Virus record (IMG/VR): IMGVR_UViG_3300020029_000043
Location: 1 to 6,059 of that record
Origin: a virus
Reading direction: 5' to 3' (one strand)
Length of the DNA: 6,059 bases
The position numbers were made by a program, and so were the translations under genes. Positions 2,146 to 6,059 of the stretch are shown here, piece by piece. How positions within the stretch are numbered: position 1 is the first letter of the stretch; every line of letters starts with the position of its first letter. A model generated the notes under the pieces. That model saw only the letters and a list, made by a program, of their open reading frames with translations. It was not told where the DNA came from and did not search any database.

Positions 2146-2324
2146 TCAAATTTAATGCTAGGGTGATCAAGACGACAACGAACAAGGTAATCATTCGCAG
2201 AGGGCTCGTCGGCAAACCAGGCAATAACAACTCGTTTCCGACCTCGGTATGCGCCAATAGAATAGCGATGAGGAATGCTATTGATAAAAGGGGAAAATCT
2301 AGGACGAAAATCAAAATAATCCAT
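2124..2324 (-). CDS. Hypothetical small basic protein (66 aa), translationally coupled to Rep
   Basis: I use the internal Met of track ORF 2124-2387, giving MDYFDFRPRFSPFINSIPHRYSIGAYRGRKRVVIAWFADEPSANDYLVRCRLDHPSIKFDCLRSLL. The ATG at 2324 is preceded by ATTAATT, the same context as the ORF107 start. Its TAA stop overlaps the Rep ATG as TAATG at 2126-2122. The longer form would run through the noncoding hairpin island. I recognise no family. Confidence 0.5.
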   Translation of the reverse strand: MDYFDFRPRFSPFINSIPHRYSIGAYRGRKRVVIAWFADEPSANDYLVRCRLDHPSIKFDCLRSLL

Positions 2325-2366
2325 AATTAATATGCTGGTTATTGAACTATTCGCAACTGGCGTAAG

Positions 2367-2407
2367 GACGCAGGACGACAGCCTCAACGGCTGGGACGCT
2401 GCGCGTC
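2367..2407 (-). other. Imperfect hairpin in the noncoding island
   Basis: gacgc (2367-2371) pairs with gcgtc (2403-2407), and cagcc pairs with ggctg around the loop tcaac. The internal region pairs only partially. It is much weaker than the neighbouring hairpin. Confidence 0.3.
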
Positions 2408-2455
2408 TTCGGCCTCCATGGCTTCACTCCGTTCGAGATATACCGGCAAAGCTGG

Positions 2456-2512
2456 TTGACTTACCAGGACCGCAGGAGAAAAGGGGGGGTCTCCTGCGGC
2501 CTGGTAAGTCAA
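2456..2512 (-). promoter_or_regulatory. Very strong hairpin: 23-bp stem (13 bp, one bulged A at 2469, then 10 bp) with a 10-nt loop aaaggggggg (C7TTT on the coding/virion strand); function unknown
   Basis: All 23 pairs checked by hand. ttgacttaccagg(a)ccgcaggaga at 2456-2479 pairs with tctcctgcggcctggtaagtcaa at 2490-2512. It lies in the 220-nt gap between ORF107 and ORF66. By my count 2361-2560 is about 59% G+C, versus roughly 37-48% in the coding stretches I sampled. Confidence 0.85.
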
Positions 2513-2545
2513 AGAACTTTTCCACCGAGCGGGCGGGTTACTACT

Positions 2546-2869
2546 CTAGTTCCCTTTCCCTTCTTCCTGCGACGTGCCTTCATCGGAAACCAAATCAAAG
2601 TCAAATATAAGAACGAGTGTATTATCGAAAAACTCGATACTGAAATTAGGATACGCACTCAAGGCGTCTACGAGACTGAAAACAGAGCAATGCTCAATAT
2701 AGGGAGAATCAGCAATACTAGAATGCTCTACGTAGGTAGAAATGGGAGTACGTTTAAGAGTGTCAATGGAGAGTGAAGAAAACTGTCCATTTTCAATGTA
2801 GCCTACCTGGACAAGGTCAATCTTGAAGGCAGGATTAATGCGACGGATAACAACGTGAATTTGTGTCAT
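2546..2869 (-). CDS. Hypothetical protein (107 aa), acidic C-terminal tail
   Basis: Complete ORF on the gene strand, not overlapped by any better ORF. The start context ATTAATTATG is identical to that of ORF66. The ATG at 2869 lies 2 nt after the TAA of ORF109 (2874-2872). I recognise no domain. Confidence 0.6.
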   Translation of the reverse strand: MTQIHVVIRRINPAFKIDLVQVGYIENGQFSSLSIDTLKRTPISTYVEHSSIADSPYIEHCSVFSLVDALSAYPNFSIEFFDNTLVLIFDFDLVSDEGTSQEEGKGN

Positions 2870-2871
2870 AA

Positions 2872-3201
2872 TTAATGGGGTTGAGTTAAAATTGAAAAAA
2901 AGTATCTACAGAAATCTGCCCAGCGCCGAGACGCGTCATGCCAGAATTCACGACCTTCGGGGGTCGAGTCAAAAAGAAAAGCGCCGGTCAGAAGAAAAGA
3001 GTAGTCCATAGCGGGGAATGTCGCATAAGCGCAAATACGTTGCCGAATAAGGTCGCGAACAGACGTGGTGACCTGTCTGGCTGCTGCGAGATTCCTCGTG
3101 AATTTACGATAAAGATGATTGCGGACTAACCACTCGACGAAAAGGTAGTCTAAAACATCAACTCGTAAATCAAACTGACTAAAAGATTTTTGTGATTTCA
3201 T
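2872..3201 (-). CDS. Hypothetical protein (109 aa), Arg/Trp-rich, likely helical
   Basis: Complete ORF on the gene strand, first gene after the only sizeable AT-rich intergenic spacer (3202-3281). It is tightly coupled to ORF107. I recognise no domain. Confidence 0.62.
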   Translation of the reverse strand: MKSQKSFSQFDLRVDVLDYLFVEWLVRNHLYRKFTRNLAAARQVTTSVRDLIRQRICAYATFPAMDYSFLLTGAFLFDSTPEGREFWHDASRRWADFCRYFFSILTQPH

Positions 3202-3227
3202 AATAGTGTGGTTATTGGTTTACGATG

Positions 3228-3258
3228 CAAACATACAACAAAGGGAATAAATGAGAAA
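3228..3258 (-). promoter_or_regulatory. Candidate Bacteroidota-type promoter (-7 TAnnTTTG box plus a -33-like TTTC)
   Basis: The minus strand reads TATGTTTG (plus caaacata, 3228-3235), an exact match to the Bacteroides -7 consensus TAnnTTTG. TTTC (plus gaaa, 3255-3258) lies 19 nt upstream, a 3/4 match to the -33 TTTG at the canonical spacing. The site sits about 27 nt upstream of the ORF109 ATG. This is a pattern match only. Confidence 0.3.
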
Positions 3259-3281
3259 GTTAAAAAGGTCGGAAAAAATGT

Positions 3282-4562
3282 TTAATTTCTCCCATGATAG
3301 GCGCGGCGGGCATAGGTAGCACCTTCTCTATCACCGTCAGGCCCGTAAAACTCTCTCAACTCCTCGTAACCTTCGGGACCGGCAGGACCTGCGGACTTGC
3401 GACCGACATAAGAAGCACCGGCGATACCTGCGGCAGTAGCAAAAGCCTTTGTAACATCATAAAACAGAGCATTCTTGTTCTTGCGGATGCTAAACCAGTT
3501 ACCGGACAGACTCTGACGACCTTCACCAAGCTCAAGGCCACGAAGATAAGAGTAATATTCGCGACCTGTAATCTCCTCAAATTCTCCAGTAGGCTCACCC
3601 TTCTCGTTGACCAGGGGAACCTTTACGGGGGTTTCCCAAGTGACTTCAAACATGCGTTGCATATCCTTCTGCTGAATATCAAGAATATCAGCATGAGAAC
3701 GGGACTCACGTGCAGAAGCTTTAGCGGCATCGGCGACAGCGCAAAGATAAGCAAGGTTGGCAGCAGCAGACTGTTCAAGGAGAGGAATCTCAGCATCATT
3801 TTCAGCACGAATACGTTTAGAACGCTCAACCTGTTCAGCATAAGCGGCCTGAATGCGCTGAAAATCATAGGTGGCAGCGAGATCTGCATACTTGTTGTAA
3901 GCCTCCTGATTGATAGCCAACTCGCCATAATAACGAGCAAGCGAAGACTGATTGCTAATGTTAGCTCGCTTTAGTTGCTTCTCGAGCTCGATAAGGGCCT
4001 GACCTTGTTCCTTGGTGGGCATCCTGTTACGAATATCGTCAGCTTGGGCGTTATCCAGATTAGCGGCAGCCTTATTGCGTTCAATAGTTGAATTAACACC
4101 CATGGCCTCGAGTGCGACACCGGCAACGGCAGAACCAGCGCCAGGAGGCAGAGGGCTCGAGAAATCAAAAGATCCACCAGAAGGACCAGAAGCGCCTACG
4201 GAGCCAGCAGAGCCGCCGGACATAGTAGCGTTAACGCCGACACCGGAAGAGCCAAGTACGGCCGCAGGGTTAACACCAGCTTTCAAATAACGGTCGAAAA
4301 CCTTCGAAGGGTCGTTGTAAGCATTCTCATAGTCGAACTGCTTTTGCCAGTTAGCATAATTAATCTCACCTTGTTTCTGCATCTGCTCAAGGGCATACTG
4401 CTGCTGCAGTTTCATCTGCTTCTGCTGATACTTCCACTGACGCTTCAAACTAGGCTTAAGAAGGCCAGAGGCGACCTGACCGCCGGCCGAAATAGCAGCG
4501 GCGCCGAGCATAGCACCGGTGGAAACAGGCTCAACGTAGGACTTGAAATCAATAAGTCTCAT
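3282..4562 (-). CDS. VP2: Minor capsid / DNA pilot protein (Microviridae VP2 / gpH-like), 426 aa
   Basis: It is the second-largest structural-size ORF. It has a Gly/Ala-rich hydrophobic N-terminus (GAMLGAAAISAGGQVASG) followed by a Gln/Lys-rich probable coiled coil. FDRYLKAGVNPAAVLG resembles the AG(L/V)NP motif seen in annotated microvirus VP2 proteins. A long Gly/Ser/Ala low-complexity tract and further helical heptad-like sequence follow. Confidence 0.8.
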   Translation of the reverse strand: MRLIDFKSYVEPVSTGAMLGAAAISAGGQVASGLLKPSLKRQWKYQQKQMKLQQQYALEQMQKQGEINYANWQKQFDYENAYNDPSKVFDRYLKAGVNPAAVLGSSGVGVNATMSGGSAGSVGASGPSGGSFDFSSPLPPGAGSAVAGVALEAMGVNSTIERNKAAANLDNAQADDIRNRMPTKEQGQALIELEKQLKRANISNQSSLARYYGELAINQEAYNKYADLAATYDFQRIQAAYAEQVERSKRIRAENDAEIPLLEQSAAANLAYLCAVADAAKASARESRSHADILDIQQKDMQRMFEVTWETPVKVPLVNEKGEPTGEFEEITGREYYSYLRGLELGEGRQSLSGNWFSIRKNKNALFYDVTKAFATAAGIAGASYVGRKSAGPAGPEGYEELREFYGPDGDREGATYARRAYHGRN

Positions 4563-4563
4563 A

Positions 4564-4755
4564 TTACGGAAGCGAAAAATTGTTCGAACGAATGATATAA
4601 TCTACACGGACGGTGTCGATGTGAACACCATTGCGGTAAACTTTAGCCTGTGCGGAACACGAGGACAAGAAAAAGGTAGCCAGCGCGGCAACGATAGACG
4701 AGACGAGCGTCCAAAACGCTTTCGACTTATAAAAGGGTTGTTTAATATCAGACAT
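4564..4755 (-). CDS. Small predicted lipoprotein (63-aa precursor, 31-aa mature lipopeptide)
   Basis: I use Met38 of track ORF 4564-4866, giving MSDIKQPFYKSKAFWTLVSSIVAALATFFLSSCSAQAKVYRNGVHIDTVRVDYIIRSNNFSLP. It has a Lys-containing n-region, a 16-residue hydrophobic core and an L-S-S-C lipobox. Cys33 is encoded at 4659-4657. Its TAA stop (4566-4564) lies 1 nt before the VP2 ATG. The 37 upstream codons of the long form are Arg-rich and coincide with a structured terminator-like element, and they would bury the signal peptide. Confidence 0.6.
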   Translation of the reverse strand: MSDIKQPFYKSKAFWTLVSSIVAALATFFLSSCSAQAKVYRNGVHIDTVRVDYIIRSNNFSLP

Positions 4756-4780
4756 AGGGATAAAATTTAGAGAACGATAG

Positions 4781-4858
4781 AAAAATGCGCGGCCTCTCCT
4801 GCAGTCGTTACCAATAACCTTCAGCAATTCACGAACTCTTGCAAAAGGGGCCCGCGCA
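4781..4858 (-). terminator. Long imperfect hairpin followed by T5 on the coding strand; candidate intrinsic terminator or structured cis element after the capsid-ORF98 block
   Basis: On the minus strand, tgcgcgg(g)ccccttttgc (plus 4858-4841) pairs with gcaggagaggccgcgca (plus 4802-4786). That gives 7 G/C-rich pairs, a 1-nt bulge, then 10 more positions with 1 mismatch and 2 G-T/G-U wobbles. TTTTT follows immediately (plus aaaaa, 4781-4785). The fold is better on the minus strand than on the plus strand, where the wobbles become A-C mismatches. Confidence 0.4.
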
Positions 4859-4888
4859 CGTAACATATATCGTCAAGTAAAGGATATA

Positions 4889-5197: not shown

Positions 5198-6059
5198 TTA
5201 ACGATTAGACAAACGGGTTGCAAACGTCTTATTTACTAAATTCTTCTTTTGAACAGAATACGAAAGATTGACAAAGAAGTTATCTTCCAGATTGGAGGCA
5301 AACGGAGAGTTTACTTGACCCATATCCACGAACAAAAGGGAATAATACTGATTATAGCTAGCCGACAGAACACGCTGTTGAACCCAATAAGAATAAAGAG
5401 GGATATTGTTAGAGGCTTTTTGGAATCGAGACAGTTGACCAAGAACTTCATCAAACGAGGACCGAAACTCATTGAAACACGGTTCGTAGGCCACAGCTTC
5501 GGAGGCTGAGGTGGTTCCGAATCCAAATTGGAATCCGGGAACATCCTGATATCCAATATCATTATAAATAGGATTAAAATAATCGGCACCAGTATAATGG
5601 AGATAGTCAGGGTAAACACCTGCCCAATAGTAGACGGGGCGAATGCTCAGCATATCAATCATATAGCCAGGTTCGCGGAAATAATAAGACTGACGACGAC
5701 CAAGACGATCGTTGAATGCGATAGCACCACCCTGCTGTCCAAGGGGACCATTAACGCCATCACTAGAGAAATTATTTTGTCCAGCCTGATTCATAACAAT
5801 CTGAACATTGACAGTCTGCGAAGCGCTAAAGAGAAGCTTAGGACGGTCTACATGCTCGATTTTAGAAGCAAAAAAGGTCTCCAACCAATCACTATAACGA
5901 GAACCCCCAGCGCCAAGCAGGTCCTTGTATTCCTGAAGCCGCGAAGCAATAGCCAGCTGCGGTATGGTCGAGACGCCGGACATGGAGACGCCTTCGGAGC
6001 TACCAACAGGAAGCAATCGACTATAGCGGTCAGGATTCGAAGGTATAACGGCCATCGGA
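5198..6059 (-). CDS. VP1: Major capsid protein (F/VP1 family), C-terminal part; 5939-6059 duplicates 1-121
   Basis: The track ORF 5198-6055 starts at an internal Met only because the window ends. The frame is open to the edge and is contiguous with 1-1050 on the circle. The full gene is 1050..1 plus 5938..5198, which is 1,791 nt or 596 aa plus a TAA stop. That size is typical for a non-Bullavirinae capsid protein. Confidence 0.93.
   Translation of the reverse strand, partial: PMAVIPSNPDRYSRLLPVGSSEGVSMSGVSTIPQLAIASRLQEYKDLLGAGGSRYSDWLETFFASKIEHVDRPKLLFSASQTVNVQIVMNQAGQNNFSSDGVNGPLGQQGGAIAFNDRLGRRQSYYFREPGYMIDMLSIRPVYYWAGVYPDYLHYTGADYFNPIYNDIGYQDVPGFQFGFGTTSASEAVAYEPCFNEFRSSFDEVLGQLSRFQKASNNIPLYSYWVQQRVLSASYNQYYSLLFVDMGQVNSPFASNLEDNFFVNLSYSVQKKNLVNKTFATRLSNR
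5939..6059. repeat. Terminal redundancy (right copy), identical to 1-121
   Basis: Same as the left copy. Position 5939 corresponds to position 1. Confidence 0.97.

Follow-up and report, generated by a model that had tools for sequence, protein, structure and literature searches.

The locus studied here raises the question of whether two intergenic hairpins that share short words are copies of one signal and, if they are not, what the second of them, hereafter element B, does. The window, by which we mean the whole stretch of 6,059 nt that was analysed, is a complete circular microvirus genome with a unit of 5,938 nt and a terminal redundancy of 121 nt, and all of its genes lie on the minus strand in this order:

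Upstream of VP4, minus strand: ORF66, first in transcription order.
2124 to 1054, minus strand: VP4/Rep (Pfam PF23343, with a weak match to Phage_GPA; PHROG replication initiation protein).
1050 to 1 and 5938 to 5198, minus strand: VP1.
5185 to 4889, minus strand: ORF98, a post-capsid ORF, followed by element B.
4755 to 4564, minus strand: lipoprotein ORF of 63 codons, after element B.
4562 to 3282, minus strand: VP2.
3201 to 2872, minus strand: ORF109.
2869 to 2546, minus strand: ORF107, followed by the first hairpin (hairpin A).
2456 to 2512, minus strand: hairpin A, to all appearance the family's intrinsic terminator, with a stem of 23 bp here and its T-tract lost; unrelated to element B.

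Relatives at ~80% nucleotide identity come from the faeces of many animals. Genomes were compared in coding orientation after rotation to the VP4 ATG (window position = 2124 - (rot - 1), modulo 5938); the main comparison comprised 71 complete genomes, and other counts use 80, 83, 87, 59 or 116 genomes or sequences. One related metagenome contig (L276, NFZD01002047.1, 10,406 nt) holds a tandem pair of full microvirus genomes with their elements 5,644 nt apart; it is a concatemer or else a circle that the assembly went round twice.

The sequence-only reading had proposed, from the words TCTCCTGC, GCGGCCT and AAAAGGGG, that hairpin A and element B contain a duplicated or co-recognised cis element. 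The words are where it placed them, with TCTCCTGC at 2490 and 4795, AAAAGGGG three times (2286, 2479 and 4843) and the arrangements TCTCCTGCGGCCT and GCGGCCTCTCCTGC as described; GCGGCCT lies at 2496 and 4789 as claimed, and has an additional copy at 3844 that had been missed. The judgement that sharing three words is unlikely by chance was also borne out: in 20,000 dinucleotide-preserving shuffles of the two segments, counting maximal words of at least 7 nt, three or more shared words appeared in 0.065% (two or more in 1.6%, one or more in 18%), so composition alone does not explain the coincidence. This is the evidence in favour of a shared cis element, and the comparison with relatives goes against it, because among the 71 complete genomes each word is common to both elements only in this window (GCAGGAGA, AGGCCGC and CCCCTTTT) and the most that relatives have in common is the 7-mer CAGGAGA, which recurs in both elements in 13 of the 71.

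The history of hairpin A points the same way. At its position at least 14 close relatives carry a plain intrinsic terminator made of AGGCCCCAGGAGA, a pyrimidine-rich loop, TCTCCTG(Y)GGGC and TTTTTT (that is, AGGCCCCAGGAGA-loop-TCTCCTGYGGGC-TTTTTT). Three differences set the window apart from its nearest relative. The 5' arm has undergone a C>G substitution (plus-strand 2497) that gives a once-bulged C a partner, and this single base completes both TCTCCTGC and GCGGCCT; only this genome has two of the words in its hairpin A. The loop now reads C7T3 and thereby supplies AAAAGGGG on the plus strand. In place of the T-tract stands an exact reverse complement of the 5' flank, so that the stem reaches 23 bp. 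Many other, more distant relatives have a wholly unrelated branched hairpin at this place, or none, with element B unchanged. An exact 21-mer of hairpin A had no match in IMG/VR, consistent with a hairpin unique to this genome. Hairpin A is thus, judging from its relatives, the family's ordinary intrinsic terminator, remodelled in this genome. The sharing of words is likewise best described as a lineage-specific accident of this one genome, since the words are unique to it and relatives have a stem-plus-T6 terminator there, and the coincidence was helped by both stems being built from AGGAG/CTCCT and C-runs. We consider a shared cis element very improbable. What survives in spirit is the suggestion of terminator-type hairpins closing gene blocks, hairpin A of the relatives being a stem followed by T6 and element B a GC stem followed by T5.

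Downstream of hairpin A (window 2325-2455, minus strand) we also observed several small GC hairpins with GNA-type triloops, such as GACGC-GCA-GCGTC. This cassette is present in some relatives and absent from others, and the region is a candidate single-strand DNA signal of its own.

Element B occupies window 4766-4882 on the minus strand (~115 nt) and is the most conserved stretch of the genome, above any gene. Averaged over columns, its identity is 0.949 (0.65-0.87 for the genes), and its two flanks are the best-conserved 30-nt windows of the whole genome. An ORF98 search of IMG/VR returned 187 relatives, and element B was present in all 80 contigs retrieved; with 41 GenBank microviruses (down to 71% identity) and 51 metagenome contigs also carrying it, it is known from about 280 related contigs and GenBank records in all, from pigs, rodents, lemurs, tortoises, birds and humans. 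Wherever an annotated record was inspected, it stands directly after the ORF98 homologue and before a lipoprotein or VP2 gene. In a recombination-breakpoint profile (correlation of left and right distance matrices, 71 genomes), it falls in a broad low-information valley at rot 2800-3450.

A 100-codon ORF (4564-4866) does overlap the element and would extend the small lipoprotein at its N-terminus; the window and 33 of 80 relatives keep this frame open, and some GenBank relatives annotate it as a 303-nt ORF. Against a coding extension, the element lacks codon periodicity (variability by codon position 0.062/0.078/0.077, compared with 0.31-0.40 at third positions of the flanking ORFs), 20 of 80 genomes have stops or frameshifts within the element that close the frame, a 35-nt insertion is present in two relatives, and the element contains covarying base pairs. 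Element B is non-coding, the description of the site as intergenic was correct in that the overlapping ORF is not a conserved reading frame, and we regard the coding explanation as practically untenable. Three records (MG945456, MG945141 and MG945455) annotate the 303-nt ORF across element B, the conserved gene being the 63-codon ORF from 4755; deposited annotations that extend the lipoprotein gene across the element are therefore probably wrong.

Database comparison gave no known counterpart. Rfam 15 at E<=1 returned nothing relevant, the one hit being a chance match of hairpin A to an miRNA, below threshold; ARAGORN detected nothing tRNA-like; and our literature search found no description of element B or of any microvirus regulatory RNA. 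A dif/XerCD attachment site, an idea put forward for Alpavirinae-like lysogeny (Krupovic and Forterre 2011, PMC3091885), was also considered and set aside, since inspection by eye gave only a partial likeness to a XerD arm (8/11). A search for integrated copies with a 19-mer of element B gave 4 chance hits in 185,579 species genomes, and none was seen in 401 sampled genomes of one bacterial class, which we took as Bacteroidia as the sample was centred on an Oceanihabitans (Flavobacteriaceae) genome.

Separately, two bacterial contigs were found to hold CRISPR arrays, one at 857-3382 of L277 (OGQV01000378.1, 45 kb) and one at ~8300-8800 of L255 (ERZ833963 NODE-1989, 21 kb), which have in common a 36-nt repeat, GTTGTGGTTTGATGTAGAATTTC(G/A)ATAAGATACAAC, with spacers of 29-30 nt. 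Of the 38 spacers in L277, 22 or more match this microvirus family, with hits to both strands and four of them in or beside element B, and L255 has a spacer for the 3' box of the element in the opposite orientation. These arrays point to the host lineage. The L277 array is adjoined by cas1-cas2, and our suspicion is that the system is of type II and targets DNA, but the 8 kb examined showed no cas9.

We derived the fold of element B from RNAalifold, a mutual-information scan and explicit pair counts, all of which agreed. On the coding strand it forms a three-way junction closed by the GC stem P1, with U5 directly after, and consists of the following parts:

4860 to 4882, minus strand: 5' invariant box CTTTACTTGACGATATATGTTAC (also given as CTTTACTTGACGATATATG), unpaired save for a possible GATA/TATC contact; contains ACTTGA.
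4852 to 4859, minus strand: 5' strand of P1, GTGCGCGG, pairing with 4785-4792.
4818 to 4850, minus strand: hairpin H1 (P2 plus P3), with a conserved 11-nt loop, GAGTTCGTGAA.
4810 to 4819, minus strand: exposed strand GGTTATTGGT, a candidate seed, invariant in the main clade.
4793 to 4809, minus strand: junction strand AACGACTGCAGGAGAGG, containing A92, which covaries with U49.
4785 to 4792, minus strand: 3' strand of P1, CCGCGCAT, with covariation.
4766 to 4784, minus strand: U/T tract and 3' invariant box TTTTCTATCGTTCTCTAAA (also given as CTATCGTTCTTTAAA); relatives read CGTTCTTTAA.

Pairing in this fold is kept by compensation. Overall, 99.1% of cells pair, and 95 cells carry double-sided changes; column shuffles gave 14.9 +/- 5.4, with none of 500 reaching 95, and controls with slid partners gave no more than 11. 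P1, composed of GUGCGCGG/CCGCGCAU plus CC/GG, shows G-C in 70, G-U in 8 and A-U in 8 sequences at pair 40/104. In H1, 5 of the 9 pairs change on both sides among the close sequences and 8 among the divergent ones, as at pairs 48/74 (U-A 62, C-G 22), 49/72 (C-G 37, U-A 32, U-G 17), 52/68 (C-G 58, A-U 8, U-G 6, G-U 5) and 53/67 (A-U 64, G-C 10, G-U 7, C-G 5). The divergent set of 23 genomes has both-sided changes at 13 pairs in total, and single-sequence folds of divergent genomes give the same three-way junction, with the junction strand replaced by a short hairpin, H2, whose loop is TGCA or TGAA. The 5' box is nearly invariant in 87 and 59 aligned relatives and falls within one of the two top 30-nt windows, the 3' box lies within the most conserved 30-nt window of the genome, and the T5 directly after P1 is nearly invariant in ~110 sequences.

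The sequence-only reading had held that the element folds better on the coding strand. By covariation this is so: of the 1,997 paired cells, 137 are G.U, a combination that the other strand would show as an A.C mismatch, and the fold is assigned to the coding strand on this basis. Single-sequence energies did not bear the claim out, with RNA folds of -36.5 (coding) and -31.3 kcal/mol (other strand) at z-scores of -2.5 and -3.3, and DNA folds of -15.0 and -16.3, respectively. One covarying pair conflicts with the three-way junction: U49-A92 (A1 columns 50/96; window ~4842/~4799; U-A 62, G-C 9, G-U 5, U-G 4, C-G 1, A-U 1) fits an alternative rod pairing of CCCCUUUU with AGGAGAGG, and may represent a second conformer or a tertiary contact. 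Three further helices were considered and rejected. The P0 stem (GACGATA/TATCGTT) retains only 4 invariant pairs, its variable positions being uncompensated; the P4 hairpin GUUA-UUGG-UAAC is compatible with the alignment, has one-sided changes only and is lost in divergent relatives; and a pairing of GTTAC in the 5' box with GTAAC showed no covariation by eye.

What this RNA-like structure might do is suggested in part by its 3' end. As had been claimed, T5 follows the element on the coding (minus) strand, at window 4781-4785, so that a GC-rich stem immediately precedes a U-tract on the transcribed strand, as in intrinsic terminators. Terminator loops are short (3-8 nt), and the RNA enclosed by P1 is instead structured and ~62 nt long; with so long a loop, element B goes uncalled in the consensus terminator scan. 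We found no canonical promoter between element B and VP2, so read-through past the element must occur. The same features would be compatible with a simpler role, in which element B works as a leaky intrinsic terminator or stabilises mRNA as a 3' hairpin and takes no part in base-pairing or replication: the GC stem is followed by a nearly invariant U5, the capsid genes ahead of the site are highly expressed and those behind it are needed in fewer copies, and read-through is required. Phages of the phiX174 type have intercistronic hairpins of this kind, which terminate transcription or stabilise mRNA, after genes J, F, G and H, and element B resembles them in having a hairpin and U-run on the coding strand after the capsid block, presumably leaky. 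It differs in that its stem closes a 62-nt three-way junction, its flanks are better conserved than the genes and one of its strands is complementary to the leader of another gene. A simple terminator would have no need of ~60 invariant unpaired bases, nor of a covarying 33-nt inner hairpin with a conserved 11-nt loop, and its conservation above any gene, like the failure of the consensus scan to call the site, would be out of keeping. We therefore judge a terminator-only role improbable.

The complementarity just mentioned involves the exposed strand of the junction. The seed GGTTATTGGT (4810-4819) is the reverse complement of ACCAATAACC (3210-3219), which lies ahead of ORF109:

3228 to 3235, minus strand: -7 promoter box TATGTTTG (TAnnTTTG, Bacteroidota-type), just upstream of the ORF109 leader.
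3210 to 3219, minus strand: leader motif ACCAATAACC, 18 nt upstream of the ORF109 ATG and complementary to the seed.

In 54 of 83 genomes this is the longest complementarity of element B to the rest of the same strand, and the leader motif forms an island of conservation within a variable spacer. Between 9 and 11 Watson-Crick pairs join seed and leader in 95 of 116 genomes. Within the main clade, leader variation comprises 20 genomes with C>T opposite G, which is G.U-compatible, versus 1 mismatch. Outside it, an alternative seed type, GGTTTTTGG, occurs with a matching leader, CCAAAAACC (also given as CCAAAAAC(C/T)); the seed GGTT(C/T)AAGG occurs with the leader CCTTTAACC, C(C/T)TTTAACC, giving two compensated pairs and one mismatch; and GGATTAAGG is a further compensatory type. 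Own leaders pair better than permuted ones (P = 0.024 with one row per seed type, n = 14). On the other side, about half of the most divergent lineages or seed types have no matching leader, and an unrestricted RNAduplex scan of the junction strand against each genome did not single out the leader, GC-rich coding hits dominating. Compensatory co-variation of seed and leader is thus suggestive, with modest support from these alignments.

The TAnnTTTG box at the ORF109 leader is present in 64 of 71 genomes and is the family's best such box. A second, inside ORF66 and upstream of VP4 (about 2147-2154, minus strand), is present in 49 of 71, and none was found between VP1 and VP2, a distribution that suggests two transcription units in the genome. 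A promoter for a separate RNA could not be recognised in the 5' box, where neither sigma-70 nor Bacteroidota (TAnnTTTG) spacing fits.

Base-pairing small RNAs derived from 3'-UTRs or encoded by phages include CpxQ and SroC in enterobacteria and GibS and MasB in Bacteroides. Element B shares with them a structured body, a Rho-independent-type end, a seed of ~10 nt complementary to a translation-initiation region, conserved and single-stranded, and a target that tolerates G.U pairs; it differs in being known from sequence alone and in having its target on the same small genome.

We therefore favour, at a probability of roughly 0.45, a reading in which the words are incidental and element B is a structured 3'-end RNA that serves both as a leaky terminator and as a base-pairing regulator of ORF109-ORF107. 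In this model the VP4-VP1-ORF98 transcript would carry element B at its 3' end, where it would act as RNA. Ahead of the lipoprotein and pilot genes, P1 with U5 would serve as an intrinsic terminator, probably a leaky one, or as a 3'-end structure. The 10-nt strand left exposed, GGUUAUUGGU, would form base pairs with ACCAAUAACC, where the ORF109-ORF107 mRNA begins, and this pairing, 18 nt before the ORF109 start codon, would limit or time translation. The invariant flanking boxes may carry a second, DNA-level replication function. An RNA mechanism is favoured because the best-fitting features, namely the terminator-type stem with U5 and the exposed seed, are RNA ones. Among the points against it, a terminator stem closing a 62-nt structured insert is atypical, the evidence for pairing comes from one large clade plus a few divergent lineages, and an RNA role leaves the invariance of the unpaired flanks, including the one 3' of the U-tract, unexplained.

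These flanks bring in the main alternative, a DNA-level origin module in which the fold, in the packaged strand, marks the start of the complementary strand and a flanking box is the nick site of VP4, the candidates being ACTTG^A (5' box) and GTTCTTT^AA (3' box). The layout would recall the intergenic region of f1, whose minus-origin hairpins adjoin the plus-strand nick on its 5' side. Several observations fit: the region is the most conserved of the genome, unpaired bases on both sides included, and the fold is strand-specific. Complementary-strand origins include the PriA (n') hairpin of phiX174, the oric of G4, hairpins B and C of f1/M13 and the plasmid ssoA, and element B is like them in being a strand-specific intergenic fold kept by covariation with conserved unpaired bases, the packaged strand being assumed from the family and a priming role putative; it has no sequence similarity to any of them and no RSB/CS-6 pattern. 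The GNA-triloop cassette after hairpin A is an equally good candidate for such an origin.

For the 5' box, the comparison is with the 30-nt viral-strand origin of phiX174 and G4 (CAACTTG^ATATTAATAAC...). ACTTGA, which resembles a phiX-type nick core, is present at the 5' box in 67 of 71 genomes; beyond it come an AT-rich spacer of 13 nt and then a conserved GC box, spaced much as in the phiX 30-nt origin. Only a 6-mer matches, however, the second box is a different one (TGCGCG), the site is far from rep, the T of CTTG varies in about 8 genomes (CTCGA, CTGGA, CTAGA) and the two-box signal CTTGAT-N13-TGACAC is absent even with up to 3 mismatches allowed.

For the 3' box, the comparison is with the f1/M13 nick site, GTTCTTT^AATA. 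This is matched by CGTTCTTTAA in most relatives, the decamer being identical to that around the gene II nick site in the M13 record, and the copy in this window reads GTTCTCTAA. A gene II-family protein and a single copy per replicon, which go with the f1/M13 type, are both lacking here. M13 gpII belongs to the Pfam families Phage_CRI and G2P_X_C, and VP4 to PF23343 with its weak Phage_GPA match; as the families differ, the resemblance to f1 has no protein-family backing, and we rejected a link between the nick-site likeness and the Rep family. The box GTTCTTTRA is conserved beside both elements A and B in most relatives (GTTCTTT beside element B in 70 of 71 genomes), at exactly two conserved positions, rot 3288 and rot 5546, with both copies pointing the same way and none on the opposite strand. 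A pair of active nick sites would split the replicon and would not be tolerated. The second copy stands as follows:

2509 to 2521, minus strand: second GTTCTTTRA copy, AAAAGTTCTTTGA, just upstream of hairpin A.

It is part of a second conserved non-coding block (window 2509-2545, minus strand; rot 5518-5554) that comprises a small GC hairpin, CCGCC-N5-GGTGG, then 4 nt and GTTCTTTRA; the hairpin is variable in relatives, and this copy of the box degenerates in divergent relatives, a further point against its being an origin signal.

The box may also mark places where hairpins have been gained. In two relatives, L001 (3313-3347) and L003 (MG945713, MG945784), the 35-nt insertion lies downstream of element B exactly after GTTCTTT and contains a very stable GCGAAGC mini-hairpin, an observation that speaks for an origin. 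In L242 and L234 the second GTTCTTTRA runs directly into the ORF66 ATG; as these genomes lack hairpin A and the cassette there, both look like an insertion after the second box. This suggests, from the positions alone, that hairpin DNA inserts preferentially after GTTCTTTRA.

Conserved compensatory hairpins in other microvirus clades have tentatively been given an origin role (PMC9865509), which adds to the case for an origin. Reekeekee- and roodoodoo-microviruses have conserved intergenic hairpins with compensatory substitutions, whose function is only inferred (PMC9865509). These are the nearest published parallel to element B, and they differ from it in clade, in sequence and in being simple hairpins for which long-range complementarity is not reported (PMC9865509). 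An origin module would leave both the complementarity to the ORF109 leader and the nearly invariant U5 unexplained, and we consider it unlikely as the account of element B, though still to be taken seriously. It and the regulatory-RNA reading are compatible and not exclusive of each other: virion DNA is presumably of mRNA sense, as in the Microviridae that have been studied, and covariation cannot separate a role as RNA from one as single-stranded DNA when the virion strand and the mRNA have the same sense.

Returning to the terminator-closed regulatory RNA, we hold as a tentative proposal that element B might be a phage-encoded regulatory RNA, the first in Microviridae, whose seed would couple transcription of the capsid genes to translation of the ORF109-ORF107 accessory operon, and that it might overlap replication signals. 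Bacteroidales gut microviruses are among the most abundant phages of the human and animal gut, and to our knowledge no cis-acting signal has been defined experimentally in any of them. Element B is a sensitive marker sequence for the clade and a precise target for first experiments on the control of transcription, translation or replication in these phages. The pairing of seed and leader, if real, would mean RNA-based regulation in a 6-kb single-stranded DNA phage.
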